From Candidatus Saccharimonadota bacterium (GTDB taxonomy: Bacteria; Patescibacteriota; Saccharimonadia; Saccharimonadales; SZUA-47), in NCBI GenBank assembly GCA_016700315.1, contig CP065013.1, forward strand, positions 705,449-769,448: a DNA stretch of 64,000 nt, read 5' to 3'. The notes below the pieces were generated by a model. It was not told the origin of the DNA. It made no database searches and worked only from the letters and a program-made list of their open reading frames with translations. Below, piece by piece: positions 29,629 to 49,715 of this stretch (position 1 is the stretch's first letter; every line of letters starts with the position of its first letter). The translations under genes were made by a program, and so were the position numbers.

Positions 29629-29714
29629 GCGCGAGTGGTGGAACGGTAGACACGCTAGTTTCAGGTACTAGTGGGGGCAACCCTGTGGAGGTTCAAGTCC
29701 TCTCTCGCGCACCA
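29629..29714 (+). tRNA. tRNA-Leu (anticodon CAG), CCA encoded
   Basis: Manual cloverleaf: acceptor GCGCGAG/CTCGCGC, anticodon arm CTAGT-TTCAGGT-ACTAG, long variable arm, T arm GGAGG-TTCAAGT-CCTCT, 3' ACCA. Confidence 0.93.
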
Positions 29715-30601: not shown

Positions 30602-32239
30602 GTGAATAAGGTAGCACATTATCTGCAAGAACACGTAGTCGGTGAAGTCTACGCTTCGCACGATGTGCGCGAGCACTTTTCAACCGACGCCAGTATCTTT
30701 AAGCAAGCTCCTGCGATTGTCGTTTATCCTCGCAGTGAAAATGATGTTCGCAAGGCCGTGCGTTTTAGTTGGCAGCTGGCTGAGCGCGGGCGTGTAATAC
30801 CAATCACGGCACGAGGTTCGGGTACTGACTTGACTGGAGCGGCCATAGGTAGCGGAATTATGTTAGTTTTTCCGGCTCACATGCACAAAATTTTGGAGCT
30901 AGATCCCAAAAACGGACTGGTAGCAGTCCAACCGGGCGCTAATTTCGGAAAGCTTCAACAAACACTCTTTACGCATGGTCGTTTTCTGCCGTCTTTTCCA
31001 GCAAGTGGCGAGTACTCCACAATCGGAGGAGCAGTAGCAAATAATGCTTCTGGGTCTAAGAGTTATAAATACAGCGACACGCTCGAATATGTTCGGGGTC
31101 TAAGGGTTGTGCTGGCTAACGGTGAACTGATTGAGACAGGTAAGCTCAATAAGCGAGAGCTCAAAGCCAAGCTAGGTTTATCTGGAATGGAAGGCGAAAT
31201 ATATCGTCAGCTTGACAGCTTACTTGAAGAATACAAAGAGACGATCAAGAACTATTCTCCGCAAGCCAAAACTAATATTGGGTATAACGTATCGGCTGTA
31301 CGTAGCAAGGACGGAAGCTTTAATCTTACGCCGCTATTGGTTGGTAGTCAGGGGTCGCTTGGAGTTATTACGGAAGTTGTACTAGATACGGAGACACATA
31401 ATCCCGAGACATCTTTGGTCATGGCTGGTTTTGATAGTATCGAAGCTTGTTTGCAGGCGATCGATGAAATCAAAAAGATGAAATTTGGCCCAAGTGAGTT
31501 AGACTTTGTTGATCGTAATCTGCTAGAGTTCGCACTAGCTACAAACCCACATGTCTTGAAAGGTTATTTCAATGAGGCGATGCCAGATATACTATTGTTT
31601 GCCGAATTTGATGACGAGAGCATTCGCCTGCAGCGTAAAGTTGTGAAGAAGTTCAATAAAATCGTCGAAAAGTACGGCCAGATTGTGCTTGAAAGCAAAC
31701 AAGAAGAGTATATCGACAGGGTCAGAGCTGTGCGTGATACCGCAGCCGGACTGTTGTCACACAGCGAGAGCTCTTACCGCGCCGTGCCTGTTATAGACGA
31801 TGCGGCTGTACCTCCAGAAAAGCTTGGTGCGCTAATTGGCGAAATAAGAGCACTCATGCAGCGCTATAATCAGAAACAATACGGTATTTGGGGCCATGCC
31901 GGCAGTTCTATTGTCCATGCCGCTCCGTTTTTGGATCTATCTCTAGTTGGCGACCGTCAAAAAGTCTTCAAAATGCTCAAAGAATACTACGAGATAGTCA
32001 TGAAACTTGGTGGGTCACTGAGTGGTGAGCATGGTGACGGGCGTTTACGAGGGCATCTGCTACCAATGCAGCTGGACTCCTCCATGATCGAACTCTGTAC
32101 AAAAGTGAAGAAAATTTTTGACCCGCATGGTATTTTTAATCCTGGTGTAAAATTCGATGCCACAGAAGAACAGTCCAAAGCTTGGATGCGGAACGAATAT
32201 TCAATTCGCAAATTCGCCGACCACATGCCCAGGAGCTAA
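30602..32239 (+). CDS. FAD-linked oxidase (GlcD / D-lactate dehydrogenase family)
   Basis: FAD-binding PCMH-type domain (PRSENDV...ITARGSGTDLTGAA) and a C-terminal FAD-oxidase domain (GSLSGEHGDGRLR). The start is uncertain: GTG at 30602 is preferred over the ORF-track start at 30536. Confidence 0.85.
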   Translation: MNKVAHYLQEHVVGEVYASHDVREHFSTDASIFKQAPAIVVYPRSENDVRKAVRFSWQLAERGRVIPITARGSGTDLTGAAIGSGIMLVFPAHMHKILELDPKNGLVAVQPGANFGKLQQTLFTHGRFLPSFPASGEYSTIGGAVANNASGSKSYKYSDTLEYVRGLRVVLANGELIETGKLNKRELKAKLGLSGMEGEIYRQLDSLLEEYKETIKNYSPQAKTNIGYNVSAVRSKDGSFNLTPLLVGSQGSLGVITEVVLDTETHNPETSLVMAGFDSIEACLQAIDEIKKMKFGPSELDFVDRNLLEFALATNPHVLKGYFNEAMPDILLFAEFDDESIRLQRKVVKKFNKIVEKYGQIVLESKQEEYIDRVRAVRDTAAGLLSHSESSYRAVPVIDDAAVPPEKLGALIGEIRALMQRYNQKQYGIWGHAGSSIVHAAPFLDLSLVGDRQKVFKMLKEYYEIVMKLGGSLSGEHGDGRLRGHLLPMQLDSSMIELCTKVKKIFDPHGIFNPGVKFDATEEQSKAWMRNEYSIRKFADHMPRS

Positions 32240-32369
32240 GCTCTAGACCTCTGACCGTAGTCCTTAGGCCCTAGTATGCTGTTAGTTAATTAGTATTTTT
32301 TGTAGCTAGACAATAAACATTTTAGACACCACAAGCAGCGTGCTATGGTCTAAGGGCTAAAGACTAGTG

Positions 32370-33134
32370 TTACTTAAGTCCGTCTTTGGACATGAACTTT
32401 TTCATAGCATCCACGGTGTCCATAAATTGGGCAGGGAAGATGATTGTGCTGTTTTTTTCGACTGCTATCTCACTCATAACCTGTAGGTTTCTGAGCTGGA
32501 GTGCGATTGGGTGGGCCGCAATGATATCGGCAGCTTCCCCAAGTTTGGCGGCAGACTGGGCTTCACCCTCGGCGGCAATAATTTTGGCTCGTTTCTCACG
32601 CTCGGCTTCGGCTTGCTTGGCCATAGCGCGCTGCATAGTTTCGGGAAGGCGTATGTCTTTTAACTCAACTGTACTGACATATATACCCCACTTCTCGGTA
32701 GCGGTGTCGAGAATCGCTTTGATCTTTTCGTTGATAGTAGAAGTTTCACTGAGCACTTGGTCGAGAGCACACTGGCCGATAACATTTCGAACAGTAGTTT
32801 GGGCAATTTGGTAGGTCGCAGATACAACGTTACTAATTTCGACGAGCGACTTGGTGGCATCTACAACCTGGTAATATGCAACCGCTGCTACGTCGATGCT
32901 GACGTTGTCCTTCGTAATAATCTGCTGACTATCTACAGGTAAAGTAATGATACGCATGTCGACCTTTTTCATCTGGTCGATAAAAGGGATGATAACCCTG
33001 AGCCCCGCCTCTTTTGGGGTGGGCTGTACCCGTCCCAGGCGAAAAACCACACCTCTTTCAAACTGGTTGACTAGCCTAAGCCCCATAAGCACCGCGATAA
33101 CAAATAGCGCTATCAGAAACCACACAAAACCCAT
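32370..33134 (-). CDS. SPFH/band 7 (stomatin-like) membrane protein
   Basis: 254 aa. N-terminal TM segment, then the SPFH core (...TKDNV.I.VDAV.YYQV.D...) and an Ala/Glu-rich coiled coil ([17 protein letters not shown]). Confidence 0.9.
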
Positions 33135-33182
33135 AACCCCTCCTTATTCATACTGATATTGTAACCCTATTCTGGCCTACCA

Positions 33183-33563
33183 TCAATGAAACCGCAGATA
33201 CGTGTTGTAATTTTGCGTAAGTCTATAAGAGAGCCAAACATCTTTCGGTAATACGAAAGCACCTAATAAATGTGCCAAATCTACTTCAGCTCTAGCGCCA
33301 CGACTTTCGGTCCAACCATCAAGCACGGCAATTCCTTGAGCGCCTAAAACCCCTGGAAAGTCGGCGCGCATATAGTCAGCCCAACCCCAATCCTGCTCTC
33401 CTTTTACTTCGTGTGGGCTAAAAACTTTATAGCCAGCACCTCTGAGTTGTGTAGCACCTGCCTCGAAAGCACTAAAATTATGCTTCGGGTATCCTGTCAT
33501 TGGTCCTGATAGATACAAATTTTCCACCTCATTAACGTTTTTTGGAATAATAATACGCTCCAT
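33183..33563 (-). CDS. DUF4406 / nucleoside 2-deoxyribosyltransferase-like protein
   Basis: 126 aa. LYLSGPMTGYPKHNFSAFEAGATQLRGAGYKVFSPHE...LDGWTESRGARAE pattern. This family is common in phage and mobile contexts. Confidence 0.65.
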   Translation of the reverse strand: MERIIIPKNVNEVENLYLSGPMTGYPKHNFSAFEAGATQLRGAGYKVFSPHEVKGEQDWGWADYMRADFPGVLGAQGIAVLDGWTESRGARAEVDLAHLLGAFVLPKDVWLSYRLTQNYNTYLRFH

Positions 33564-33722
33564 GGTTTCCCTTTCTACACTTTATATACACAAATAATAT
33601 AGCATCAATATCTTTGAGAGAAATAATAATCAATCTTTTGGATGTCTATTGTATGGATGTTTTAGGCAAAGACGGCTATGTTTTTTCAAGGCCAGTGCTA
33701 CAAAATATCAAAACGCCCAAAA

Positions 33723-33839
33723 GTCCCCAAACAATTCCAATTGTTTGGGGTAGCTGAGGAACAAGACAAGACCCCGTCTATTTATTTGCCACTTGCTAGC
33801 ATAAAAATAGACGGGGTTGAACTTAGTTCGGACGTGGTG
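33723..33839 (+). repeat. 117-bp repeat, copy X (two hairpins)
   Basis: CCCCAAACAAT-TCCA-ATTGTTTGGGG and ACCCCGTCTATTT...AAATAGACGGGGT. About 92% identical (9 mismatches by eye) to 37078-37194, in the same orientation. Confidence 0.85.
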
Positions 33840-34019
33840 CACCTGAAGACAGATGTCTTGAACCTTTTGACAATATAAGTGATTGGCTACTGAGTAGTCC
33901 AGATATAGACTGGAATTTACAGCTCAGGAATGCTTCTCTATCACGGTTCGTGCCACAGTATCAGCTCTGATATTAGTGTGTTATTACTCTCGCTAGAAGT
34001 CGTTTGAACCTTAGCAATA

Positions 34020-34739
34020 CTAGGGTTGCTCAACAGTAACTGGTATCCACTGTGCCATGCCAGCTTCAAGAACGTATTCTTCGCCCAGACTACGGGTAGC
34101 AAGTGAACGATGCCTACCATTCTGGATTGACCAATCTCCTGCTATCTCCAAATGGTCAGGAGCCCTATGACCAGAGTCAATTCCAAGCCCTGCGAACTCT
34201 GCATGATAGGCAACTGGATCAGCCATTATTCTTGCAACACCGTGTATCCACTCGCTGATATGCTTTCCGCCAGTGCGTGATTGTACATTAGCCCAATCCG
34301 TATGACTGTATCGAGCAACTCCCGCAAGGTCGGCTCTGCCTTCAACAGCATAGTCGAATGCAGTAGGGTTACCATGCCTTTGTTGTTCGGTAATAAGCTC
34401 TTTAATTCGAGATTTGAAGAAGCCGACTTCTGGGACTTCAATTCTTGGCTTAGGATGTTGTGTCCTATCTGTAAGACCAGCTTTCATATCCTCAAGTTGG
34501 GTGAACGAATCAGGGCTTTCAGGGTCTAAACCAAGCTGCTGCATAAGCTTTTGCAGGTGACCACGCCTTACAGCTTTAATTGTGAAGTCGGCATTTGCAC
34601 TAGCCTCAACTAGCCAAGACATTATTTCTTGTATCTTTACATAGACGCCAAGAAATTCAAGTAGTCCGTCTACTTCAGGGTCACGTCTTATTTCAGCAGC
34701 GTAATTGCCACCACCACTAAATCCTTCGGGGCTTCCCAT
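34020..34739 (-). CDS. hypothetical protein with a ParB/sulfiredoxin-like C-terminal motif
   Basis: 239 aa. DWSIQNGRHRSLATRSLG resembles the (D/N)G.HR..A core of ParB-like nuclease domains. The rest is unassigned. Confidence 0.5.
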   Translation of the reverse strand: MGSPEGFSGGGNYAAEIRRDPEVDGLLEFLGVYVKIQEIMSWLVEASANADFTIKAVRRGHLQKLMQQLGLDPESPDSFTQLEDMKAGLTDRTQHPKPRIEVPEVGFFKSRIKELITEQQRHGNPTAFDYAVEGRADLAGVARYSHTDWANVQSRTGGKHISEWIHGVARIMADPVAYHAEFAGLGIDSGHRAPDHLEIAGDWSIQNGRHRSLATRSLGEEYVLEAGMAQWIPVTVEQP

Positions 34740-34786
34740 ATGGCACTATTCTATCATATAATTGCTAATAATGCAATAGCTTTGTT

Positions 34787-34814
34787 GTGTCGCACAATAA
34801 GTATTGTGCGACAC
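34787..34814. repeat. perfect 12-bp-arm palindrome GTGTCGCACAAT-AAGT-ATTGTGCGACAC
   Basis: Read directly. It lies 15 bp outside the left IS30 terminal repeat. Confidence 0.9.
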
Positions 34815-34828
34815 GCTCCAGGCTCGTT

Positions 34829-35837
34829 TGAAGTAGGACACTAAACCTAACGAAGGTTTGGTGTCAGTGAAGAGATCAAAAGATAATGATCAGATGGGAA
34901 AGCACTATGATCATTTAAGCTATGAAGATCGAGTCAAGATTGAACATTGGCACAAAAGCGGAAAGAGTATCCGGTTCATAGCACGTGAGCTGGGGCGAAG
35001 CCCCAATACCATCAGCTATGAACTAAATAACCTTCGGGTGTCTGGTGAATACGTTGCCAAGAAAGCTAAGGTGAAAGCATACCAAAAACGTAGGCTGGCT
35101 CGAACTTGGAGTAACAAAGTTGCCAGAGACAAAGACCTGCGAACCTATGTTGACGATAAACTGGATCTCGGCTGGTCACCCAAAGTCATAGCCGGTCGCA
35201 CTCAAGCCGATCTCAACATTGCTGTGTCGAAGGATGCGGTCTACCGCTATGTACGTCTGTACGCCCTTCACCACAAGCTGCACTTCAAAGGTAAGCCAAA
35301 GAGACGGAAGACAATGTATCGTCGCTCACTGATTGGTGACCGGAAATGGATCGAAGAACGTATCCTACGTGATGAGATCGGTCACTACGAGCTCGACTTC
35401 ATTGTCAGCAGGCACAGTAGAGCTGTGTTGTTGGTTGCTGTAGATACGCTGAGCAAAAAGACACTCATCGAGCTTCTACCCAACAGAACGAAGAAAGAGG
35501 TGTCAAAGGCTCTGAGAGTGATGTTTGACGGTTGCACCGTTAAAACCATCCTGACCGACAATGACATTGCTTTCAAGCAGTGGCAGGAGTTTGAGAGACT
35601 ATTGCATGCCCCAATCTACTTCTGTCACCCATACCACTCGTGGGAGAAAGGTCTAGTTGAGAACGCCAACAAGTGGATACGGCACTTCATACCGAAGAAA
35701 ACAGACCTACAATTCGTTACTAAAGAAAAAATACACGAGTGCCTCGTGTATTTAAATGATCGTCCAAGAGAAGTGCTTCAGTTCAGAACTGCCAATGAAG
35801 TATACTGGGAGAAATTAACTTGAAGTGTCCTACTTCA
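34829..35837 (+). mobile_element. IS30-family insertion sequence (about 1.0 kb)
   Basis: 14-bp terminal inverted repeats TGAAGTAGGACACT (34829-34842) and AGTGTCCTACTTCA (35824-35837) enclose a single IS30-type transposase ORF. Confidence 0.8.
34858..35823 (+). CDS. IS30 family transposase
   Basis: 321 aa. N-terminal HTH (LSYEDRVKIEHWHKSGKSIRFIARELGRSPNTISYEL) and a DDE core (...DFIVS..., LTDNDIAF, HSWEKGLVENANKWIR). The start codon is uncertain. Confidence 0.9.
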   Translation: MVSVKRSKDNDQMGKHYDHLSYEDRVKIEHWHKSGKSIRFIARELGRSPNTISYELNNLRVSGEYVAKKAKVKAYQKRRLARTWSNKVARDKDLRTYVDDKLDLGWSPKVIAGRTQADLNIAVSKDAVYRYVRLYALHHKLHFKGKPKRRKTMYRRSLIGDRKWIEERILRDEIGHYELDFIVSRHSRAVLLVAVDTLSKKTLIELLPNRTKKEVSKALRVMFDGCTVKTILTDNDIAFKQWQEFERLLHAPIYFCHPYHSWEKGLVENANKWIRHFIPKKTDLQFVTKEKIHECLVYLNDRPREVLQFRTANEVYWEKLT

Positions 35838-35918
35838 GTGCCGACTGTACGAGAGAATTCTTAAACAACCAAAATAATAAAATTGTAATATTTCAATAAT
35901 AAGTGTATAGTAATATTA

Positions 35919-37076
35919 ATGAGCAATCGTTCTATTATTCCTCGCAATTTTGATCGTGTTGGAGAGGCTACATACGAGATGTCACTTATAGAAGGTAAGG
36001 GCATTTCATCGGATGTGTCGTTAAGAGTTTTCTTTGATCCTGATGGTTTATTAGGCAATACTATCTTGCAATTTGATGTTAGCCCAGTAGTAGACGATAG
36101 GCGAAAAGAGATAATCGCCAGTTATGGATTAGATCAACAACGCATACCTTGGTTTGACGGTCTTACCTGGGGGGTAATTCGTTACAATTTGCTTAATTCA
36201 ATGCTTGTGGTGCCCTTGGAACCAGGAGCACCAAGTGCTTCAAGCCCTGACCCCCATACGCGTATTGCAGAACATCTGGGTATTCGTTCAGAACGCGGGA
36301 TTGATGGAGATGGAAAAGATTTTCTTGACGTACGCTGCACCCTCGGCGCAAAAGCGCTAAGTGAGCTATATGACAGAGTGCGCGGCCTGGGGGATTCTGT
36401 GAAATTTACCGATTACCACAGCAATACTAACCCAGGAAACAATATGAGTTACGAGGGCGAGCAGCTGATCGAAGGGCTAAAAGACGGAACAGTTTTAGTT
36501 GCGCCAGTACCAGAAGAAGGCGTAAACGTTACAAACATTGCATGGTCAGCTATACACGACAACATACTACACTTATATGGCAATATACTACTGAGGACGC
36601 CGGCGTTCAATGAGCTTGTTCGAACTTTTGGTCCACGAAAAGATGTCAGCTATATTGACTCGGAACTGGCGTATGTTGCTGGAACGATAACAGAGCTAAT
36701 AGACTACGGATGGTACGAGCCTATCCGGCCAGGTGAAAACTATGTGCCGTACACTAAATTACACGAGCTCCTCATACCGTTTATTGATGACTCAAATCCA
36801 ATGGTTGCCAGGCTAATAAATGAGGCTCGTCTATTAAGAAAGATAAAAGATAGAACACAAGAGCCCACTGATGCGGAGTGGGATGAATACGTGCAACTTG
36901 TCCTAAGCCCTGACAGCGTTCTAGAGCAACTCGACGATGCGGCAAACTCAATTCCAAGACGCTTTGTTTCTGTAACCGGTAAAGAACTAAGAAAAGAGAG
37001 ATTAGATATGCTCTCTGTCATTTCTGCTCTTGGAGCTACCGCGGGTAATAATAGATATCGGGGCGGATTGAATTAG
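35919..37076 (+). CDS. hypothetical protein (385 aa)
   Basis: Long ORF. TATAGT at 35906-35911 lies 7 nt before the ATG. No domain recognised. Confidence 0.65.
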   Translation: MSNRSIIPRNFDRVGEATYEMSLIEGKGISSDVSLRVFFDPDGLLGNTILQFDVSPVVDDRRKEIIASYGLDQQRIPWFDGLTWGVIRYNLLNSMLVVPLEPGAPSASSPDPHTRIAEHLGIRSERGIDGDGKDFLDVRCTLGAKALSELYDRVRGLGDSVKFTDYHSNTNPGNNMSYEGEQLIEGLKDGTVLVAPVPEEGVNVTNIAWSAIHDNILHLYGNILLRTPAFNELVRTFGPRKDVSYIDSELAYVAGTITELIDYGWYEPIRPGENYVPYTKLHELLIPFIDDSNPMVARLINEARLLRKIKDRTQEPTDAEWDEYVQLVLSPDSVLEQLDDAANSIPRRFVSVTGKELRKERLDMLSVISALGATAGNNRYRGGLN

Positions 37077-37077
37077 G

Positions 37078-37194
37078 GTCCCCAAACAATTCCCATTGTT
37101 TGGGGTAGCTGAGGAACAAGACAAGACCCCGTTTATTTATATGCCACTTGCTAGCATAAAAATACACGAGGCTGGTCTTATTTCGGACGTGGTG
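37078..37194 (+). repeat. 117-bp repeat, copy Y
   Basis: It starts 2 nt after the stop of the 385-aa gene. The first hairpin is intact and the second is degraded relative to copy X. Confidence 0.85.
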
Positions 37195-37197
37195 GAT

Positions 37198-37368
37198 TTT
37201 TACAACTCCGCTAGAACCTATTTTGAGGAAAAATGCTGAAAAGTACGGCCCCGCCGCCTAGCACAGCAGAGCTGTGCTGCGCCCCGCCCAGAAAGCCCTT
37301 TGCATATTTTTTGAATTTCCCCCGCAGAGATTTTTTAGAAAAGGAAAAGGGTGTTTCTGGTTGGGTCG
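37198..37368. repeat. 171-bp inverted repeat, left arm
   Basis: Exact reverse complement of 38742-38912 by manual comparison. The two ORF-track peptides spanning the arms share an identical 51-aa C-terminal stretch (TQPETPFSFSKK...FPQNRF). Confidence 0.9.
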
Positions 37369-37471
37369 CGTTTCGGCATAGGCCGAAACAGACGGCGTGT
37401 CTGGGGCGGCACTGCCGCCCTCGTGTCGCTTGCGACACGCAAACAGGGGAAAATCTGTTAAAATTAAAAGT

Positions 37472-38095
37472 ATGAGCAAAGATAAATTTGATTTTAGTGA
37501 GGAGTTTCGCACTTCAAGAGTGCAAACAATAGCCAGAGGTGAATTATTTTGGACTGAAGTAGATATCTTAGACCTAAGCGATACTCAGACGGCTAATGTT
37601 CTAAAAGCTACTCTGGAGAATTACGGCATAAAAACCAACTACTTTCCTGCGGCACTTGCCGAACATCTTAAGAAAGTTCTGGGGGGCAGCGATTATGCTA
37701 AAGCTCCGTACCTTATTATTGCCGCGCACGGTGCCGAACAAGAAGGCTCGCTACATATGGACACTTTGGCTGATGAACTTGCAGCTACACAGGACTTTCA
37801 CGGCCAAATGACACCAGAAGACCTTTCAAAATTTGTAGATGTAAAAGATAAGGTCGTGATAAATGTTGCGTGTGTTGGCGGCGAAAAAGAATTAGCGAAA
37901 GTATTTATAGAAAAAGGTGGCGCAAAAGCCTATATTGCCGAGACATCTTCACCCTTTCATTATGTAAGTTCATTATTCCCGACATTGCTTTTCTATTTTC
38001 TGACTAACTACACAAACTTAAGTTTGGCAGAGGCTTTTGAACGCGCAAAGGCCGCCGATGCCGAAGAATTTAAAAGCTGGAAGCTCTTTGAGTAG
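37472..38095 (+). CDS. small CHAT/caspase-fold-like protein (putative Cys-His peptidase)
   Basis: I prefer the ATG at 37472, with an extended -10 TGtTAAAAT at 37456-37464 lying 7 nt upstream. 207 aa with LIIAAHG (His86) ... VINVACVGG (Cys134) ... KGGAKAYIAE ... LSLAEAFERAK, the order seen in CHAT/clan CD domains. This is motif-level inference only. Confidence 0.55.
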   Translation: MSKDKFDFSEEFRTSRVQTIARGELFWTEVDILDLSDTQTANVLKATLENYGIKTNYFPAALAEHLKKVLGGSDYAKAPYLIIAAHGAEQEGSLHMDTLADELAATQDFHGQMTPEDLSKFVDVKDKVVINVACVGGEKELAKVFIEKGGAKAYIAETSSPFHYVSSLFPTLLFYFLTNYTNLSLAEAFERAKAADAEEFKSWKLFE

Positions 38096-38142
38096 TGCTA
38101 TGGGGTTGGGTGGCAAAGTAATGACAGTGGAAATATAAACTT

Positions 38143-38712
38143 ATGAGCCTGAAGATCCTAATCATTGAGGGCATAGCAACTAGTGGTAAATCAACCATGA
38201 TTGAGTTGTTGCAGAAAAAGTTAAGCGACAAAAAGATTAAGGTATATGGTGAACCAGATACACATATACCTATAATGGAACAGCCAGCAGAGTTGCATCT
38301 GGATTTTTTCAAATCACTGCTTGATACCTCGTTAAATACCGAAGCTGATTACATAATCTTTGACCGACTTTATCTGACCCAAGCGTTTAGAGCAAAAGCT
38401 GACATTTCAAAGTATGAAGATATAGAAAATGTGCTACTACAACATCAAACACTTACTGTATTTTTGAAAGTGGACGAAAAGACTACCGCGAAAAGAGTGC
38501 AAACTGCCGCTGAACACCGCGAACAATCGTGGGTCGAGTACATAAAAACAAAAGGCAAAACCATTGAGGAGATAGCGCGGTATTATGTTGACCAACAGCG
38601 TAGCCAAATTGAACTACTCGCCACATCAAAAGTTAATAATAGAGTTTTTGATACCACCGAACACGAATACGATAAGATTGCTGACGAAATCCTGTCTATC
38701 TTTAAACTTTAA
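38143..38712 (+). CDS. P-loop kinase, thymidylate/deoxynucleotide kinase-like
   Basis: 189 aa. ILIIEGIATSGKST Walker A, ...VYGEPDT..., YIIFDRLYLTQAF (DR strand), lid-like basic segment. Confidence 0.6.
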   Translation: MSLKILIIEGIATSGKSTMIELLQKKLSDKKIKVYGEPDTHIPIMEQPAELHLDFFKSLLDTSLNTEADYIIFDRLYLTQAFRAKADISKYEDIENVLLQHQTLTVFLKVDEKTTAKRVQTAAEHREQSWVEYIKTKGKTIEEIARYYVDQQRSQIELLATSKVNNRVFDTTEHEYDKIADEILSIFKL

Positions 38713-38741
38713 GGATTGCCGCACCTGCGCTTTAACGCAGA

Positions 38742-38912
38742 CGACCCAACCAGAAACACCCTTTTCCTTTTCTAAAAAATCTCTGCGGGGGAAATTCAAA
38801 AAATATGCAAAGGGCTTTCTGGGCGGGGCGCAGCACAGCTCTGCTGTGCTAGGCGGCGGGGCCGTACTTTTCAGCATTTTTCCTCAAAATAGGTTCTAGC
38901 GGAGTTGTAAAA
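38742..38912. repeat. 171-bp inverted repeat, right arm
   Basis: Reverse complement of 37198-37368. Confidence 0.9.
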
Positions 38913-39038
38913 CTTCACCAAAAATGGACTAAAGTCAGAATTGTCGCCCGAAAGAACGGCTTTTTCTTTGGTTTTTGCTGCGCAAAACCAAAGAAAAAAC
39001 GGCGCAGCGCGCCGCTAATTCCAATTTTTGTCCATTTC

Positions 39039-39125
39039 TGGTGCGCGAGAGAGGACTTGAACCTCCAAGCTTTTTAAGGCACAGCCACCTCAAGGCTGCG
39101 TGTTTGCCAGTTTCACCACTCGCGC
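39039..39125 (-). tRNA. tRNA-Leu (anticodon GAG), CCA encoded
   Basis: The reverse complement reads GCGCGAGTGGTGAAACTGGCAAACACGCAGCCTTGAGGTGGCTGTGCCTTAAAAAGCTTGGAGGTTCAAGTCCTCTCTCGCGCACCA. Anticodon loop TTGAGGT, long variable arm. Confidence 0.9.
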
Positions 39126-39812
39126 GTTTGCACGATTTATTCTATCATTTTTATCTCTTGCTATGAAGCTAAGTAGTTTGTCTTTTTTTCTCCTTAGAGA
39201 AAATTTTTCTGAACAGGCCGTGCTATACATAGCATTACTAATCTTTTCTGAGTCTAGCTTGGCATAAGCGAGCGTATACGCTCTGTTGGATTTTTTTATA
39301 GACCCTTGAGTAGTACCACATAAGATTTTATTTTGTTTCTGAAGCCATTTAATATAATCGAGACTGGCAGAAGTGAAACCAGTGTAGTACATATAACTAG
39401 ACCGCCATCGCTTATCCGTGTATGCATAAGTAGTGCCGTCACCATCGAAATACCCTCTTAAAAAGTCGCCCCAGTACTCGTTTGGCAGTTTTACTTGTTT
39501 GATTGTCTTGCTCTTTCTTGGAGTAATCCCATGAGTATTAAAAAAGTCGTACAATGATACATCGCTAAATTGCCAGCAAAAGGCAAGGTTTCCTAGCTCT
39601 CCCTTTTTGATTTGGACCTTCTTACCTATCCCGCCTAGCGCCTCCTGGCAATATTCAATTATCTCATAGTCTTTTGAGGTTATATTAAGGTGGCGGCCGT
39701 TGCTAATAAGACAACCGTCAGAAGCGAATAGCCCCGCAATGTATGCTAACTCCTGTGTCCATAAGTAACTTTTTGTTTTCTTGTATCTTCTCATGGTATA
39801 AGTATATACCAA
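39090..39812 (-). CDS. LAGLIDADG homing endonuclease (double-motif, free-standing)
   Basis: 240 aa. Motif 1 YIAGLFASDGCL, motif 2 FLRGYFDGDGTT. The last 36 nt including the stop lie inside the 5' half of tRNA-Leu(GAG) on the same strand. Confidence 0.85.
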   Translation of the reverse strand: MVYTYTMRRYKKTKSYLWTQELAYIAGLFASDGCLISNGRHLNITSKDYEIIEYCQEALGGIGKKVQIKKGELGNLAFCWQFSDVSLYDFFNTHGITPRKSKTIKQVKLPNEYWGDFLRGYFDGDGTTYAYTDKRWRSSYMYYTGFTSASLDYIKWLQKQNKILCGTTQGSIKKSNRAYTLAYAKLDSEKISNAMYSTACSEKFSLRRKKDKLLSFIARDKNDRINRANARVVKLANTQP

Positions 39813-39851
39813 TTTGTTTTTTAAGAGTTGCTTGTGTACAATACTTTCAAA

Positions 39852-39928
39852 GGGCGCTTAGCTCAGTTGGCTAGAGCACCTCGTTTACACCGAGGGGGTC
39901 GCGGGTTCAAGTCCCTCAGCGCCCACCA
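39852..39928 (+). tRNA. tRNA-Val (anticodon TAC), CCA encoded
   Basis: GGGCGCT acceptor, D arm GCTC-AGTTGGCTA-GAGC, anticodon arm CCTCG-TTTACAC-CGAGG, T loop TTCAAGT. There is one C-U mismatch in the T stem. Confidence 0.88.
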
Positions 39929-39942
39929 AGTAGTCATTTTCC

Positions 39943-39970
39943 GAACCCCGGCCTGCAAAGGCCGGGGTTC
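39943..39970 (+). terminator. strong GC hairpin after tRNA-Val (GAACCCCGGCC-TGCAAA-GGCCGGGGTTC)
   Basis: 11-bp perfect stem with only a weak T tract after it. It marks the start of the GC-rich block. Confidence 0.5.
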
Positions 39971-40141
39971 GTCGTTCAACGCTTCCGACCGCTATCGCCA
40001 GCATCGTCACCAGATCGGTGAGCATACCCTTTTCCGGGCGCCGCCGAGGCACCGCGTGTGATAGGGTACCCGAAACGCAAGAACCCCGGCAGCTTGCGCA
40101 TCCTACCCCGGAGTCAAGTGCTGGTGCTGGGTGTCGCCAAG

Positions 40142-40474
40142 CTAGGCAGCGTCCGTTGCTAGCCCGTCATCGCGAATACTTTGACGGAATATCCCATCCC
40201 GTTGCCGCTCCAGCAGATTGACAGCCTCAATCTGTGTCGGTTCTAACGTACCCTCCAGCGCCGCCTGGATAAATGCCACGTCAGTCTCATAAGCCGGTCC
40301 ATATGCCCCGGCTAAGGCTGCCAACGCCACTTGCTCCGAGATGTTCGGCGCGCCCCGCCACGCATCGCATGGGATTATTGCACCAACATCGCCGTTGGAT
40401 GCAGACAGTATGTCGTCATACTCTGCCTCCAGAGCGGAGTAGAATTTTGGACTTCTGGTCATTTCTAAGGCCAT
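40142..40474 (-). CDS. hypothetical protein in the GC-rich block (110 aa), possibly a gene remnant
   Basis: Most plausible of several overlapping ORFs in a GC-rich segment. No Shine-Dalgarno sequence and no recognised domain. Confidence 0.3.
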   Translation of the reverse strand: MALEMTRSPKFYSALEAEYDDILSASNGDVGAIIPCDAWRGAPNISEQVALAALAGAYGPAYETDVAFIQAALEGTLEPTQIEAVNLLERQRDGIFRQSIRDDGLATDAA

Positions 40475-40634
40475 CTGTCTGGTCTTACTTGGTAACGCGA
40501 ACGGTCCCGCCAGACCCTTTCGGTAGACATTATACCACGTCCCGTGCGAAATTTGTGGTGGCCTAAATGCTACATAATTTCCATCATGTTAAGTAAGATG
40601 CTACAATATAATCACTAAACCTAAGGGGGTAAAA

Positions 40635-41207
40635 ATGCCAATTATTTGGATTGTTGTAGGTGCGGTAGCGCTAGTCGTGCTAGCTGTTATCGGTATGTAC
40701 AACGGACTAGTCAAAGCAAAAGTAAGGGTCGATGAGGCCTGGAGCGATATTACGGTTCAGTTGAAGCGCCGTGCCGACCTGATCCCGAATCTTGTAGAGA
40801 CTGTAAAAGCGTACGCCAAGCATGAAAAAGGCGTTTTCGAAGAAGTCACAGCCGCTAGATCGGCTATGATGAGTGCCGGCACTCCTGCCGAAGCTGCAAA
40901 AGCTGAAAACATGATGGCTGGTGCGCTAAAAAGCTTGTTTGCGGTAGCAGAAGCTTACCCTGATCTCAAGGCTAATCAGAACTTCCAGCAGCTACAGATG
41001 GAGCTGGTAGATACTGAAGACAAGATTCAGGCTAGCCGACGCTTCTACAATGGTGCAGCTCGTGATCTCAACATCAAAATCCGTACTTTTCCAACTATTA
41101 TTTTTGCTCGCATGCTTGGATTTACTGAGCGACAATTTTTCGAGCTTGACGAAGCCGAAAACGCCAGTGTTCAAGAGCCTGTAAAAGTAGATTTTGATAC
41201 AAAGTAA
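40635..41207 (+). CDS. lemA: LemA family protein
   Basis: 190 aa. N-terminal TM segment, YN.L........V.EAWS.I.VQLKRR.DLIPNLV..VK.YA.HE pattern. Confidence 0.9.
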   Translation: MPIIWIVVGAVALVVLAVIGMYNGLVKAKVRVDEAWSDITVQLKRRADLIPNLVETVKAYAKHEKGVFEEVTAARSAMMSAGTPAEAAKAENMMAGALKSLFAVAEAYPDLKANQNFQQLQMELVDTEDKIQASRRFYNGAARDLNIKIRTFPTIIFARMLGFTERQFFELDEAENASVQEPVKVDFDTK

Positions 41208-41274
41208 TCTGCCGCATAAAACAGCAAGCCTCCGAACCCAAACGAAGGCAAACAAAAACGTTTAGATAACTAAA

Positions 41275-42150
41275 ATGTATAGTCAAATACAAGCCAACAA
41301 AACCAAATCAGCCCTCATTTTGATGGGCTTTTTTGGCTTTGTGGCGCTACTTTCCTACCTGTTTTCAATTTGGTATCGTAATCCCAGCATAATGATTTAC
41401 GCACTACTCGGCTCGCTAGTTTATGCGCTAATAAGCTACTACAGCTCGTCAAAAATGGCTCTAGCTCTCAACGGTGCACGCGAGATTACCCGCCGCGATA
41501 ATCCGCAGCTATGGAACGTGGTTGAAAATATTTCGATGACTGACGGGCTACCAATGCCGCGCGTTTATATAATTGATGACCCGGGCTTAAACGCTTTTGC
41601 GACAGGCCGAAACCCCGAGAACGCTTCTGTGGCGATTACCAGCGGCTTGCTAGAAACATTGACCAAGGCTGAGCTTCAGGGTGTTATGGCGCATGAGCTT
41701 GGTCATGTAAAAAACTATGATATTCGAGTCAGTATGGTAGCTTTTGCACTAGCAAGTGTCATTAGTCTGTTGTGCGATTTTTTCCTGAGAATTAGCTGGT
41801 TTGGTGGCGGGGACGACGATAATAACAACACTCAGCTGCAAATTTTTGGCATCGTGGCTGCAGTTATCGCTCCATTTGTGGCTATGATGATCCAGATGGC
41901 GCTCTCTCGTAGACGTGAATACCTAGCAGATGCAACTGGCGCAGCCACAACCCGCTACCCTGAAGGACTTATAGGTGCTCTTGAGAAAATTCAGGCTTAC
42001 GGCTCGCAAACCCAGCGACAGAATTCCTCGACGGCGCATTTGTTTTTTGCAAACCCATTGAAGGGTAACTTCTTTGGAACGCTTTTTAGTACCCACCCGC
42101 CAATTGAAGATCGCATTGCTCGACTAAAGGAAATGGGCAGGAGCTTGTGA
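41275..42150 (+). CDS. htpX: M48 family zinc metalloprotease HtpX
   Basis: 291 aa. TM segments, HELGHVKN zinc motif, downstream E...EYLAD and a THPP..DRI C-terminus. Adjacent to lemA, as commonly seen. Confidence 0.9.
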   Translation: MYSQIQANKTKSALILMGFFGFVALLSYLFSIWYRNPSIMIYALLGSLVYALISYYSSSKMALALNGAREITRRDNPQLWNVVENISMTDGLPMPRVYIIDDPGLNAFATGRNPENASVAITSGLLETLTKAELQGVMAHELGHVKNYDIRVSMVAFALASVISLLCDFFLRISWFGGGDDDNNNTQLQIFGIVAAVIAPFVAMMIQMALSRRREYLADATGAATTRYPEGLIGALEKIQAYGSQTQRQNSSTAHLFFANPLKGNFFGTLFSTHPPIEDRIARLKEMGRSL

Positions 42151-42153
42151 TAA

Positions 42154-45155
<3,002 letters not shown>

Positions 45156-45208
45156 TATGGTCTCTATGGTTGCCGGGCCGAGGTCTTATAAGTTCTAAGA
45201 GTAGAATT

Positions 45209-45400
45209 TTATCTAAAGTAGACCAAACGCAGTTGCAGCAGAAGCAAGTTGGTGAAATCGTACTGTTGGGTCACCATCACGTGTTGGTTGGATGCCATGT
45301 GGCCAGCATGTAGTTGTTCGATGTCGAACTGTTGTGGATCAATGGCTAAATCAGCGTAAATACTTGCTCCATTAAGCAAAGTTTGGCTCGGTGCTTTCAT
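45209..45400 (-). CDS. small hypothetical protein (63 aa), last gene of the NAD salvage operon
   Basis: Its ATG overlaps the Nudix stop codon (TAATG), which suggests translational coupling. No motif recognised. Confidence 0.4.
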   Translation of the reverse strand: MKAPSQTLLNGASIYADLAIDPQQFDIEQLHAGHMASNQHVMVTQQYDFTNLLLLQLRLVYFR

Positions 45401-46062
45401 TATTCCGCACTTACCGCTACATCAATTATTGGCAAGTGTGGTTCAAACATATTTTTTGGCAATTGCTTCACGTTGAACCAGGCGGCCGCAAGGGCATCAT
45501 CTTTGCCTTCGACGAAGACGCTAGTACCTAAAAGCCATCTTACGGCCGTAGTCTCTGTCCAAGAATGAGCCGTAGACCTGTGATCGCCAAGTATGCCCTT
45601 AAATATGATTTTTGCCTCATCAATGTCTAGCGATATCGTTGTTTCTTCTTTAGCTTCGCGAGCAGCGGCAACTGCAACCGTCTCGTTTGGGTTCATAAAT
45701 CCACCAGGGAAAGCCCACTTGTGATTATCGCTTCGTAAAACTAAAAGAATTTTAGTTTTATTTTCGGCTAATACAACTGGGTCGACGGTGTAGTTTGGCC
45801 CCCATTCCCAAAAGAAACCTTTATTAGCCAAGACGCCATGCTTTAGTTTTTCGGCTAAATTTGGGTGTAAAGGGCGACCTAGCGAATCAATTTTTAAGCC
45901 TAAATCAGTGAAGCGCCTGACTTCTTCTGTGCACGGTAATGTGTTATTGGAGGCATCCCATGGCCCCTCTGGTATCGTTGGCAGACTTTCGTTACTAAAG
46001 TATCTGGTTTGCGGGTAGTCTATTAGCTGGGTGGGTTTGTTTAGCTCATAATTGTTATGCAT
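45400..46062 (-). CDS. Nudix hydrolase
   Basis: 220 aa. Nudix box GGFMNPNETVAVAAAREAKEETTI. Confidence 0.8.
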   Translation of the reverse strand: MHNNYELNKPTQLIDYPQTRYFSNESLPTIPEGPWDASNNTLPCTEEVRRFTDLGLKIDSLGRPLHPNLAEKLKHGVLANKGFFWEWGPNYTVDPVVLAENKTKILLVLRSDNHKWAFPGGFMNPNETVAVAAAREAKEETTISLDIDEAKIIFKGILGDHRSTAHSWTETTAVRWLLGTSVFVEGKDDALAAAWFNVKQLPKNMFEPHLPIIDVAVSAE

Positions 46063-47050
46063 AAAGTTTTATCCTCTTTCTCGGCAATGCATCAATCGCT
46101 TTGATGGCTTGCTGTAATCTCTTTTTGTGACTGCCAGTTACTATAATATAAGGTGTTTTTAGATCAGACAAAGCACTTACAAATGCTTGGTGCATCCAGT
46201 GACGGATGTGCTCACCGTCACGGAACCCATCTTGCACAAATGGTATTTCATCGCCGGTCAAAATGTATAGATCTGCCGGTGCTGTTTTAGCTATTCTATC
46301 TACTTCGGCTGTTGATTCCCCCATATAACGCGTCTGCCATATTTTTGTTGCGAAAGCGTTCGTGTCGCAAATAAGCTTACCGTTGCAAAGACCGGCTAAA
46401 TCGTCCTCGTACTGTTGCTGAAGTCTGGCAATATTTGCAAAGTCTTCATCTTGCCAATCATGCTTGGCGCTTGCCAGTGACATGGTATAGTACCGACCTA
46501 GTTCAACAGTCCATGGACTGGAGTAGTGTTTAGCTAAGCCCTCGGCCAAGGTTGTCGTACCGGTTGATTCGGCGCCAAGCACAACTATGCGCCGACAGAA
46601 AGCCTGTCTTATCCTGGGCAACATAAAGCCCCAGTTTGTAGCCACATCATCTCTGACTTTGGTAGCCGAGATCGGAATCTTGGTGCGGCCAAAATCAACC
46701 ATTCGATGTTTGCAGCCCATTTCTTGCGCCCAGGTTATGCCGTAATTTTCGCTTGTGTAGCAAACGTCAGGTCTGAAGCCTAGAAACTTAATAGTGTGCT
46801 CCGACCAATGAGGTGAATCATCTAGCTCGGGTGGTAGCTCGGGTATCGGTTTTACTATTGCCTTTGGATGAGCTAGTCTTAGCCAATTAGCCCGTATCTC
46901 AGCTGGGATGGTATAGTTTGGATTGTCACAGGGCAGAACATAAACTTCATCACACTCTTCTAGTGCAGTGTTAATTAGGTGGTGGTGACCTTTGTGTGGT
47001 GGGTGGAATTTTCCAACTATTACCGCTCGGCGTGGTTTATTGCTTTTCAT
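46055..47050 (-). CDS. nadR: bifunctional NMN adenylyltransferase / ribosylnicotinamide kinase (NadR-type, no HTH domain)
   Basis: 331 aa. GKFHPPHKGHHHL nucleotidyltransferase motif, then a P-loop GAESTGTTTL kinase domain. Confidence 0.85.
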   Translation of the reverse strand: MKSNKPRRAVIVGKFHPPHKGHHHLINTALEECDEVYVLPCDNPNYTIPAEIRANWLRLAHPKAIVKPIPELPPELDDSPHWSEHTIKFLGFRPDVCYTSENYGITWAQEMGCKHRMVDFGRTKIPISATKVRDDVATNWGFMLPRIRQAFCRRIVVLGAESTGTTTLAEGLAKHYSSPWTVELGRYYTMSLASAKHDWQDEDFANIARLQQQYEDDLAGLCNGKLICDTNAFATKIWQTRYMGESTAEVDRIAKTAPADLYILTGDEIPFVQDGFRDGEHIRHWMHQAFVSALSDLKTPYIIVTGSHKKRLQQAIKAIDALPRKRIKLYA

Positions 47051-47696
47051 AGGTCTTCCTCCAAGTGATGTAGCCCTTGATAGCCAGAAATAAGAAGATC
47101 AGATAGAGCAGGGCGACGAAGGGCACGCCTTTTTTGGCGTAAAGGCCTACGCCAATTACATCTACGACTATCCAAATAGGCCAGTTTTCTAGTCTTTTAA
47201 TAATTAGTAGATATTGAGCGATAAAACTAAGTACCGTAGTAAAGACGTCTAGTAGCACAAAGCTGGCGGGTTCTGGAAAAAGACTCGGCAGCCAGATGTG
47301 TATGTTGCTCATTGCCCAGGCGTAAACGATGGTGCCGAGTATGGCTGTGATTATCCAGGCTTGGTTTTCATGATCAGTGTTTTTGGTAACAATAATATTT
47401 TGATCATCTTCTGCCTTGGTCTTGCGTTTAGCCCAGACGTACCAGCCCCAGAAGCCAGTGATTAGATAGTAGACCTGTTCTGACAAGTCAGCGTATAGGT
47501 GAAGCTGGTAAAACAATGTGCCAAACAACAAAACCCCGATAATACCAATCGGCCAGTTTAGTATGTGTTTTTTAGCAACCAACCAGACACAGGCTAGGTT
47601 TGCTAATGTGCCAAAGAATTCTATGTAACTCATTTGGTAGCCAAGGATGGTAAAGAATGTCGTATTTACGTTAAGTAGGTTTAGCAAGTTACTCAT
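47037..47696 (-). CDS. pnuC: nicotinamide riboside transporter PnuC
   Basis: 219 aa. 7-TM protein with PnuC-type W-rich motifs (NWPIGIIG, GFWGWYVW, NWPIWIVVD). Confidence 0.85.
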   Translation of the reverse strand: MSNLLNLLNVNTTFFTILGYQMSYIEFFGTLANLACVWLVAKKHILNWPIGIIGVLLFGTLFYQLHLYADLSEQVYYLITGFWGWYVWAKRKTKAEDDQNIIVTKNTDHENQAWIITAILGTIVYAWAMSNIHIWLPSLFPEPASFVLLDVFTTVLSFIAQYLLIIKRLENWPIWIVVDVIGVGLYAKKGVPFVALLYLIFLFLAIKGYITWRKTYEKQ

Positions 47697-47706
47697 AATA
47701 TTCCTC

Positions 47707-48987: not shown

Positions 48988-49676
48988 TGTGGGCCGCCTA
49001 ACTCTACTATTAATTCGTTAGTATTCATTAGTCTTACCCCAGCGGCGCGTAGATCTACTAAAGCCTGTTCGCCAGTTTCTTGAGCGACTGGTTTAGTGGC
49101 ATCTGTCACGACAACTACATCGATAGCGGACTTTCGCTTAAAATCTATCGCGGTGGCTTTTACGCAGTAATCAAGCGCCAAGCCACCTAAGACAAGGGTT
49201 TTTACATTGTTTTTATTTAAAAATTGGGGTAGTGTTTCTTTCTTTTGGCTAGATAACTCACCCATGCCTAAGTAATATTCGTTGATTCGAAAAGCATTGA
49301 AGCCACTATAGCTAGTGTCGTCTTTGCCATCATGTAGAATTTCTTGTCCTTTTTTGAACTTATGTGTCATTTCGGGTAGTTTTATGTCTTGGTGCAATTT
49401 TGCTCCATCTGTATGGGCTACACAGTGGGTAGGCCAAGTCGTCATGTAATTTGGGTTTTCATTAAAATGGGCAGTTTCTTTAGGGTGCCAATCTTGTGTA
49501 GTGAACACTAAATCAAAAGAACCACTAAGCAACAATTTATTAAGCGGGGCTATAATTTTTTCGCCGTCGGGGACTGTCAGCTCACCAAAGCCTTGTTGTC
49601 CTAGGCGTTCACCCTCGCCAGCTGGCATAAACCCGCGCTGAGCATCAATTATCCCAAGCGCTATATCTTTATTCAT
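48984..49676 (-). CDS. pncA: nicotinamidase (isochorismatase fold)
   Basis: 230 aa. IIDAQRGF, ...QDWHP..., and the catalytic Cys context GLALDYCV. Confidence 0.85.
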   Translation of the reverse strand: MNKDIALGIIDAQRGFMPAGEGERLGQQGFGELTVPDGEKIIAPLNKLLLSGSFDLVFTTQDWHPKETAHFNENPNYMTTWPTHCVAHTDGAKLHQDIKLPEMTHKFKKGQEILHDGKDDTSYSGFNAFRINEYYLGMGELSSQKKETLPQFLNKNNVKTLVLGGLALDYCVKATAIDFKRKSAIDVVVVTDATKPVAQETGEQALVDLRAAGVRLMNTNELIVELGGPQ

Positions 49677-49694
49677 AACCTACCTCCTTTATAG

Positions 49695-49715
49695 TTAGTG
49701 TGTACTTGACACTTA
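49695..49715. promoter_or_regulatory. candidate NrtR operator 1 (TTAGTGT-GTACTTG-ACACTTA), overlapping the -35 TTGACA of the rightward promoter
   Basis: 21-bp imperfect palindrome. TTGACA at 49706-49711 with TATATA at 49729-49734 (17-nt spacer). Confidence 0.6.

Follow-up and report, generated by a model that had tools for sequence, protein, structure and literature searches.

A strain-variable region at two tRNA genes of a Saccharibacteria genome and the arm-flanked gene cassette within it

The DNA analyzed here is a 64-kb window of a Saccharibacteria (TM7) genome with a background GC content of 45%, and the subject of this report is the region of that window between the genes for an SPFH protein and LemA, together with an arm-flanked gene cassette that lies in it. 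The SPFH protein is 100% identical to NCBI QQS64673.1, and the close relatives of LemA all come from Saccharibacteria metagenome-assembled genomes (MAGs), with the best species representative of GTDB being 77% identical. An initial annotation had described the region as a single mosaic island between two housekeeping genes, and all twelve features that it listed do exist, at or near the places assigned to them (Table 1). From SPFH to LemA, a segment with a DUF4406 gene is followed by a module between two repeats (X and Y) that contains an IS30-family element, by a cassette of two genes between inverted arms, by a palindrome (A/A'), by tRNA-Leu(gag), a LAGLIDADG gene and tRNA-Val(tac), and by a GC-rich block. 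Strains of the same species in other samples were recovered by exact-protein look-up of contigs. The comparison comprised the close strains L104, L105, L106, L107, L110, L111, and L114, loci of other species (L012, L018, and L037), and a more distant locus (L033).

Table 1. Coordinates of the features discussed, in window positions (position 1 is the first nucleotide of the 64-kb window).
Feature	Position	Strand	Remarks
SPFH	32370-33134	-	
DUF4406 segment	33147-33722	-	Indel that takes the place of most of the 113-nt spacer found between SPFH and the repeat in other strains
DUF4406 gene	33183-33563	-	Pfam E 1e-21; PHROG nucleoside 2-deoxyribosyltransferase E 3e-26
Repeat X	33723-33839	+	Copy of the tRNA-Leu(gag) downstream region; ends in TGGTG (33835-33839)
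176-nt conserved non-coding block	33835-34010	-	Minus-strand 3' end ...GGTGCACCA, tRNA-3'-like
239-aa protein	34020-34739	-	Invariant NGRHR at residues 207-211
Palindrome	34787-34814	.	28 nt, 13 + 2 + 13; 15 nt from the IS30 left end
IS30-family element	34829-35837	+	1009 bp, exact 14-bp terminal inverted repeats
IS30 transposase	34858-35823	+	NCBIfam transpos_IS30 180.7 bits (cut-off 80); Pfam HTH_38 + rve
385-aa near-orphan	35919-37076	+	No family match
Repeat Y	37078-37194	+	Last 5 nt TGGTG (37190-37194) form the junction with the cassette
Left arm	37190-37368	+	179 nt, outer tip TGGTGGATTTTTACAAC... facing outward
Cargo gene 1, 207 aa	37472-38095	+	ATG at 37472; NCBI locus tag IPO96_03840
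Cargo gene 2, 189 aa	38143-38712	+	P-loop, dTMP-kinase-like
Right arm	38742-38920	-	179 nt, outer tip ends in CACCA (38916-38920)
Palindrome A/A'	38916-39043	.	60 + 8 + 60 nt, between right arm and tRNA-Leu
tRNA-Leu(gag)	39039-39125	-	3' terminal CACCA is the shared insertion point
LAGLIDADG gene	39090-39794	-	Double-motif, free-standing; 234 aa from ATG at 39794
tRNA-Val(tac)	39852-39928	+	3' end is the left boundary of hot spot 2
GC-rich replacement block	39929-40598	-	670 bp, 56% GC
110-aa ORF in the GC-rich block	40142-40474		
LemA	40635-41207	+	

Three of the close strains (L105, L106, and L107) have a shorter arrangement, in which SPFH is followed by 113 nt, a single copy of the X/Y repeat, tRNA-Leu(gag), LAGLIDADG, tRNA-Val, 246 bp, and LemA. 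They are 99.2% identical to the window over positions 33146-22369 and 96.8% over 45129-40599, and they are without window positions 33147-39038 (about 5.9 kb), except for one repeat copy, and without the 670-bp GC-rich block; the region is thus strain-specific, as had been proposed. In strains without the island the single repeat copy abuts tRNA-Leu directly, and the ancestral, or empty, arrangement is SPFH, 113 nt, one repeat, and tRNA-Leu. L110, L111, and L114 carry a third allele without DUF4406, in which genes for a 191-aa protein and a peptidase S58 come after the repeat and the 176-nt block. In L105 and L110, a spacer of 113-114 nt between SPFH and the repeat takes the place of the DUF4406 segment. 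The JGI contig L001 stops at 33136, and every contig on the LemA side stops inside tRNA-Val. The deviant composition that had been expected was also found: in a tetranucleotide test against 400 background segments, each as long as the segment tested, 33147-39038 lies beyond all 400 samples (z = 6.1), and the GC-rich block deviates as well (z = 4.4). The GC content of the left part (43.9%) is not unusual; it is only in the 670-bp block that GC deviates.

The two tRNA genes and the LAGLIDADG gene had been counted among the accessory parts, and on this point the comparison gave a different picture. All close strains match the stretch 39039-39928 at 98.65% identity, and L037, from another species, has the same gene order with a LAGLIDADG ortholog at 58% amino acid identity. 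In the more distant L033, a FAD-oxidase gene is followed by 730 bp that hold both tRNAs, co-oriented and with no LAGLIDADG gene, and then by LemA. The LAGLIDADG gene (Pfam LAGLIDADG_3, E 4e-13) encodes two motifs in one chain (...YIAGLFASDGC... and ...LRGYFDGDGT...), and the 3' end of its frame overlaps tRNA-Leu(gag) by 36 nt (39090-39125) on the same strand. It lies in no intron or intein and shows no presence/absence variation among the close strains, being absent only in L033. Judged by gene order and identity, tRNA-Leu(gag)-LAGLIDADG-tRNA-Val is a conserved core between two hot spots and not part of an island, and it splits the supposed single island in two. Nor is SPFH a stable anchor, since a species with an 87% identical SPFH has entirely different neighbors. 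Conserved synteny of the whole block was not found; LemA-HtpX-p334 is the only arrangement conserved across the phylum.

A wider set of 80 Saccharibacteria loci (L012-L091) almost always has a tRNA cluster upstream of LemA-HtpX-p334, usually Cys and Leu(taa) and sometimes Leu(gag) and Val(tac), at a distance from LemA that ranges from 55 nt to more than 4 kb. This variable spacing suggests that the insertion hot spot is shared across the phylum.

The first hot spot lies at the 3' end of tRNA-Leu(gag). Its junctions were compared in alignment A2, in which slashes here mark the borders. The empty site reads ...repeat...TTCGGACG/TGGTG/CGCGAGAG, that is, CGGACG/TGGTG/CGCGAGAG, with TGGTG being the CACCA end of tRNA-Leu as read on the opposite strand. 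In the window, the repeat X junction reads CGGACG/TGGTG/CACCTGAAG (the 176-nt block starts with CACCTGAAGAC), the repeat Y junction reads CGGACG/TGGTG/GATTTTTACAAC, with the last part being the start of the left arm, and the tRNA junction reads CCATTTC/TGGTG/CGCGAGAG. These junction sequences indicate that two insertions used the same 5-nt point. The junction alignment and the filled and empty sites identify tRNA 3' ends as insertion points, in agreement with the earlier suggestion that the tRNAs are integration targets. Repeats X and Y, of 117 nt each, are 92% identical and are taken as the left and right att-like repeats of an X-Y module. In L108, L109, and L117, a Y-type repeat lies next to SPFH and is 100% identical over the 53-57 nt covered. 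Two larger inserts are stacked at this site. The one next to the tRNA is a 1849-bp element (37195-39043) made up of the left arm, two cargo genes, the right arm, and the A/A' palindrome, and the one farther from the tRNA is the X-Y module (33840-37194, 3.4 kb), which holds the second repeat copy as well as the 176-nt block and the genes for the 239-aa and 385-aa proteins. The IS30 element entered the X-Y module later, and the DUF4406 segment was gained beside SPFH as a separate event. In L105 (reverse complement), part of the tRNA-Leu T-arm, GGTTCAAGTCCTCC, recurs in inverted orientation about 60 nt to the left of the repeat (A2 columns 128-145). Because this fragment lies beyond the repeat, the "empty" site may itself be the scar of earlier events.

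The second hot spot lies between tRNA-Val and LemA, where the stretch from tRNA-Val to the LemA promoter has been replaced by the GC-rich block. The GC content of this block is locally up to 62%. At least three alleles have identical boundaries (between 39928 and 39929 and between 40598 and 40599): 670 bp in the window, 246 bp in L002 and L105, and 2.2 kb in L104, with the last encoding a 419-aa protein and a helix-turn-helix (HTH) protein. The 110-aa open reading frame (ORF) of the block adjoins LemA in every case, in 35 sample blocks. The block had been called GC-rich and foreign; it is GC-rich and strain-variable, and a foreign origin found no support, with no match of the block to plasmids at the DNA level or of its 110-aa ORF to phages at the protein level. 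The 246-bp allele holds a conserved element of about 150 nt that ends in a tRNA-like 3' end. This element occurs after tRNA-Val or inside duplicated tRNA-Val fragments (L002:60-250, L105, L012:3632-3763 and 3841-3998), contains GAAAACTTGTTTTC, and shows hairpin changes that are apparently compensatory. Rfam detected only tRNAs in L012 and L002 and assigned the element to no family.

An assembly artefact was considered and rejected, because independent contigs match three parts of the region. Contigs from Logan, ENA, and JGI reproduce window 32615-34930, from SPFH into the 5' part of IS30, as well as the interior of the cassette together with its junctions to the arms and the GC-rich block beside LemA; the independent contigs L095-L099 confirm the interior-to-arm junctions of the cassette. 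Taken together, these results indicate, with a probability that we put at about 0.72, that five or more independent events have piled up in this strain-variable region, at two hot spots that are anchored on tRNA genes and flank a conserved core. The island as first described is an ordinary tRNA-linked variable region, and what the present analysis adds is its base-pair reconstruction and the cassette family described below. A rather doubtful alternative is that the variable content arose mainly through homologous recombination between conserved flanks, i.e., allelic replacement at a hypervariable locus in which the repeats are incidental. The exact common boundaries of the alleles between tRNA-Val and LemA would fit it, as would the 92% identity of X and Y, which is atypical of a fresh att duplication, the lack of an integrase in both the X-Y module and the GC-rich block, and the natural competence attributed to Saccharibacteria. 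However, both larger inserts at tRNA-Leu start at the identical 5-nt tRNA terminus, the cassette family has members at six different tRNA genes whose tips fit the end of the respective tRNA, and in one strain a full copy, recombinase included, sits at tRNA-Leu(cag) between duplicates of the 5-nt core.

The initial annotation had recognized a cassette enclosed by inverted repeats, which is present: its two arms are 99% complementary and enclose two genes. Its first gene had been given a GTG start at 37397, which was not upheld and is corrected here to the ATG at 37472. No serine recombinase is encoded in the 64-kb window, and the sole recombinase in 33147-40598 is the IS30 transposase. The window cassette would therefore, by its gene content, be a recombinase-less, non-autonomous derivative, mobile only with a recombinase supplied in trans. 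A promoter and terminator scan of the island performed no better than on shuffled sequence and gave no support to a promoter or terminator role of the arms. In an Rfam scan of 32000-42000 (E <= 1), only the two tRNAs were found; the arms, the repeats, and the 176-nt block were unmatched. The interval that separates the left arm from the ATG of the 207-aa gene (37369-37471) contains three GC-rich hairpins. The first of them (GTTTCGGC...GCCGAAAC) is also found inside the left arm of L104 and beside neither right arm, and its occurrence on the left side only gives the cassette a polarity.

L104, which belongs to the same species as the window, has a fuller version of the element, a 4.1-kb unit inserted at the 3' end of tRNA-Leu(cag). 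Its order is TTTAAA/TGGTG/arm, TetR and ABC-2 genes, arm/CACCA/A, a gene for a 544-aa large serine recombinase with Resolvase, Recombinase, and Zn_ribbon domains, and A'/TGGTG/tRNA. The same site in the window (29710-29714, the 3' end of tRNA-Leu(cag)) is empty and reads ...CGCGCACCA/TTTAAACGG. Two filled/empty pairs are therefore available, L104 versus the window at tRNA-Leu(cag) and the window versus L105 at tRNA-Leu(gag), and the 5-nt core is duplicated in both. Excision of the L104-type element is predicted to yield the attP TTCTGAACTCTT-TGGTG-GACTTTTACACGCAAGTCC (A' end, TGGTG, and arm tip), and the internal arm/CACCA/A junction is the exact reverse complement of it. The recombinase frame of L104 ends inside the tRNA, and a partial recombinase match in L134 likewise runs into tRNA-Arg. 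The position and orientation of the recombinase are the same in L104, L118, L120, and L122.

Further members were sought with one metagenome scan using a motif with 22 specified bases. The arm motif was found in 28 metagenome stretches, and none of the 2.9 million sequences of viral_contigs contained it. Inverted arm pairs enclose 0.9-3.7 kb of unrelated cargo, including methyltransferase, HEPN, 2-hydroxyacid dehydrogenase, HAD, NUDIX, histidine phosphatase, AIRS, and RibD_C genes and a zeta-like kinase with an NT5C nucleotidase. The last pair comes from another species (L018), in which arms 90% identical over 114 nt surround the zeta/AAA_33-like kinase and the nucleotidase. Beside that sister cassette, at L018:134-2720, lie genes for a 498-aa and a 375-aa protein, which a by-eye reading alone takes for an OLD-type ATPase and a UvrD-like helicase (Gabija-like). 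Tandem cassette arrays occur in L131 and L133. Besides tRNA-Arg(tct) and tRNA-Pro, the tRNA genes that adjoin arm-bearing units are those for tRNA-Leu with the anticodons gag, tag, caa, cag, and taa. Next to tRNA-Arg, the tip of the arm is TACCA and not CACCA, which matches the 3' end of that tRNA. Some arms lie directly upstream of LemA homologs. The arms have in common a tRNA-3'-like tip with a hairpin, the motif GAACCTATTTTGAGG, and three CCCCGCC boxes. RNAalifold on 22 arms predicted a long-range stem with compensatory changes, and in the alignment of the window, L018, and L104, another arm hairpin changes on both sides and stays complementary.

The layout of long inverted repeats with a recombinase gene just outside them invites comparison with the invertible C segment of phage P1 and G segment of Mu, and the arm-flanked segment could be a Gin/Cin-type switch, in which a serine recombinase flips the 1.4-kb segment and the diversity of cargo is secondary. 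In relatives, the order arm, cargo, arm, and recombinase does come with a fixed orientation; the window, L104, and L123 have partner arms with 94-99% identity, as frequent inversion or gene conversion would give; and the reverse-complement relation between the internal junction and the predicted attP would also suit inversion. We nevertheless regard such a switch as unlikely. The cargo consists of complete, unrelated enzymes and transporters instead of alternative gene ends, there is no evident outside promoter, the enzyme that accompanies the arms is a large serine recombinase with 544 aa and not an invertase of about 190 aa (neither is encoded in the window), and whole units are present or absent between strains. 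The two arms of L132 and of L135 share only 71-73% identity, and the opposite orientation was seen in no contig, though short-read contigs all break at the arms.

The IS30 element offers a different origin for the arms, namely that they are two miniature inverted-repeat elements moved by a DDE transposase such as that of IS30, forming a composite transposon. The initial annotation had called this IS30 intact-looking with 14-bp terminal repeats, and so it is; its HTH_38 + rve transposase, its terminal repeats, and its 1009-bp length are those of the IS30 family. A target duplication of 2-3 bp is not clearly recognizable in its flanks (...CGTT and GTGC...), and no second copy was found in the window or in the compared loci. 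It lies at the same place in the independent contigs L092 and L093, and an exact look-up of its transposase returned no record. A composite transposon would draw on the presence of this intact element 1.35 kb from the arms, on the non-coding and repeated nature of the arms, and on the 5-nt TGGTG, which can be read as a target-site duplication. The IS30 ends (TGAAGTAGGACACT), however, are unrelated to the arm tips (TGGTGGATTTTTACA), and there is no inverted-repeat relation between the arm tip and the A' tip, which form the two ends of the inserted unit. Moreover, on contigs long enough to contain both ends, the arms form an inverted pair beside a tRNA gene, no solo arms with 5-bp duplications were seen at non-tRNA sites, and a serine recombinase is the sole recombinase with a recurrent link to arms. 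A composite transposon is accordingly an extremely improbable source of the cassette.

In place of these models, we consider it probable that full-length members of the family have a gene for a large serine recombinase in the space between A and A' and that this enzyme inserts a circular intermediate at the CCA terminus of tRNA genes; identity between element and target would be limited to the 5-nt core, which is duplicated on insertion. The structured arms of about 180 nt would delimit a cargo compartment whose contents are swapped between elements by recombination at or between the arms. More tentatively, as a possibility that falls short of an even chance, the cassettes would be an undescribed mobile platform of Saccharibacteria, in which docking is achieved by tips that mimic the 3' end of the particular target tRNA and the arms act as exchange sites, thereby shuffling unrelated cargo between elements and species in a way that is functionally integron-like and mechanistically different. 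The window would hold a recombinase-less member with a cargo that is maybe a two-gene effector module. Candidate roles of the arms are cargo exchange sites, inversion sites, and expression insulators. No specific description of such elements from Saccharibacteria or Patescibacteria turned up in the searchable literature, which is weak evidence of novelty.

Several points weigh against this history of the region and its extension to the element family. The left outer junction of the cassette, from repeat Y to the arm, is spanned by no independent contig. The X-Y module may have come by homologous recombination and not by site-specific integration, because it contains no recombinase and its 117-nt repeats are not closer to identity. 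With no recombinase in the window, the mobility of the window copy can only be inferred. The link to the recombinase consists of adjacency in 4-5 loci, from which the circle, its excision, and the activity of the enzyme are predicted. Recombinase-less forms (arm, short palindrome, and tRNA) outnumber recombinase-bearing ones, so the recombinase could be a secondary insertion into the palindrome and not the engine of the element. Finally, the complete pairs L132 and L135 have arms that are only 71-73% identical.

Comparison with known systems places the elements near several of them. SCC elements (SCCmec and its relatives) are moved by the large serine recombinases CcrAB and CcrC. The elements described here resemble them in layout: they insert at one defined place, the very 3' terminus of a housekeeping gene, with a short att core, the cargo is variable, elements stack in tandem at one site, and recombinase-less "pseudo" elements are common. 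They differ in that the target is the CCA end of a tRNA and not rlmH, that the hosts are Saccharibacteria, and that inverted arms of about 180 nt bracket the cargo while the recombinase sits in a separate palindrome. The invertible segments of P1 (C/Cin) and Mu (G/Gin) share long inverted repeats with recombination sites at the outer tips and a serine recombinase gene directly outside; however, Cin and Gin are small invertases that act on alternative ends of tail-fiber genes inside a phage, whereas here a large serine recombinase accompanies unrelated whole-gene cargo and the unit itself comes and goes between strains. With integrons, the elements share interchangeable, promoter-poor cargo, structured palindromic conserved non-coding sites between cargo units, and arrays beside a recombinase (L131), but they have no IntI tyrosine recombinase and no attI, and their arms of about 180 nt are inverted on both sides of the cargo. 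As a tRNA-associated genomic island, the region fits in its presence or absence among strains, its tRNA site with direct repeats, and its deviant composition, and its own integrase is missing. As a large-serine-recombinase element, the cassette fits in its precise insertion with a duplicated short core, with the recombinase absent from the window copy and present in L104.

The tycheposons of Prochlorococcus (bioRxiv 10.1101/2020.12.28.424599) are likewise small cargo elements at specific tRNA genes that form islands by repeated insertion. They leave partial tRNA copies, and a minority use large serine recombinases, but most use tyrosine integrases and att sites of about 40 nt inside the tRNA, and many carry replication genes (bioRxiv 10.1101/2020.12.28.424599). 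In contrast, the elements of Saccharibacteria have a 5-nt target identity at the very end of the tRNA and long inverted arms around the cargo, and no replication genes were seen in them.

The cargo of the window cassette was examined by profile and structure searches. The 207-aa protein has 14 relatives, all from Saccharibacteria, most of which lie on contigs of 1.1-1.4 kb, as expected if the arms cause assembly breaks. His86 (in AHG) and Cys134 (in ACxGG) are invariant in 13 sequences (alignment A6). A Foldseek search of the PDB with its AlphaFold2 model (pLDDT 80) gave DdvA (8rw5) as the top match (E 2.7e-6, TM 0.54), and further matches were caspases, separase, and gingipain, with TM values of 0.46-0.54 for the best-covering ones, DdvA included; flavodoxin-like folds also score, at lower TM. 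With moderate confidence, we predict a caspase/CHAT-like (clan CD) fold with a His...Cys dyad. The 189-aa protein matches Pfam Thymidylate_kin (E 3e-6), PHROG thymidylate kinase (E 1.7e-11), and PADLOC VakA (E 1.2e-6); a literature search for "VakA" found nothing.

Among the remaining proteins, the 239-aa protein had been said to carry a ParB-like motif. It belongs to a 34-member family found only in Saccharibacteria, and its model is confident (pLDDT 85) and mostly helical, with no known fold match. The ParB reading was not supported: none of the 34 members has a Pfam match even at E = 1, and both a PDB profile search and Foldseek with the model were negative, which leaves only the invariant NGRHR. 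The 385-aa protein has 9 representatives among 1.84 billion proteins. Neither it nor the 207-aa protein has a Pfam match, and the 239-, 385-, 207-, and 110-aa proteins match nothing in PADLOC, PHROGs, or NCBIfam. The clustering of mobile signatures (IS30, repeats, and cassette), which are present as had been claimed, together with the PHROG matches of the DUF4406 and thymidylate-kinase-like genes, the weak VakA match, and the by-eye reading of the genes beside the L018 sister cassette, would be the case for a single acquired island, either a decayed prophage or a defense island, as the initial annotation had considered. We judge this very unlikely, since the tRNA-Leu-LAGLIDADG-tRNA-Val core is conserved, the parts vary independently among strains, and no capsid, tail, terminase, integrase, or other structural or phage-specific genes were found, nor any arm copy among the 2.9 million viral contigs. 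PADLOC called no defense system, with single weak gene matches only (VakA, E 1e-6; HEase, E 3e-7).

The two non-coding features of the X-Y module were also compared. L110, L111, and L114 carry the 176-nt block at 94.5% identity with other genes behind it, and L012 carries it at 88.6% identity beside duplicated tRNA-Val fragments. A structured RNA at this place was rejected on present data, with a folding z of +0.74 and no covariation or compensatory changes. The palindrome near IS30 had been called perfect; it is present, but its 2-nt centre is not symmetric, which makes it near-perfect.

Outside the region, a second strain-variable stretch of 9.2 kb was seen at window 45129-54348 (tetranucleotide z = 7.5). 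Gene calls on the identical contig L004 include NUDIX, CTP_transf_like/AAA_28 (possibly NadR-like), an NMN transporter, and NAPRTase. In 97% identical strains, 1.27 kb with Ham1 and a 224-aa gene replaces it, and it stops about 180 nt short of tRNA-Ala(ggc) at 54529.

Saccharibacteria and other ultra-small episymbionts have tiny genomes with few recognized mobile elements and no well-described route by which accessory genes are acquired. The locus analyzed here shows, at base-pair resolution, strain differences that probably accumulated as one insertion after another entered at the 3' ends of tRNAs. For the mining of serine recombinases as genome-engineering tools, the shortness of the core and the match of the arm tips to each tRNA are of interest, and the element family could be one of the chief carriers of gene flux among these bacteria.

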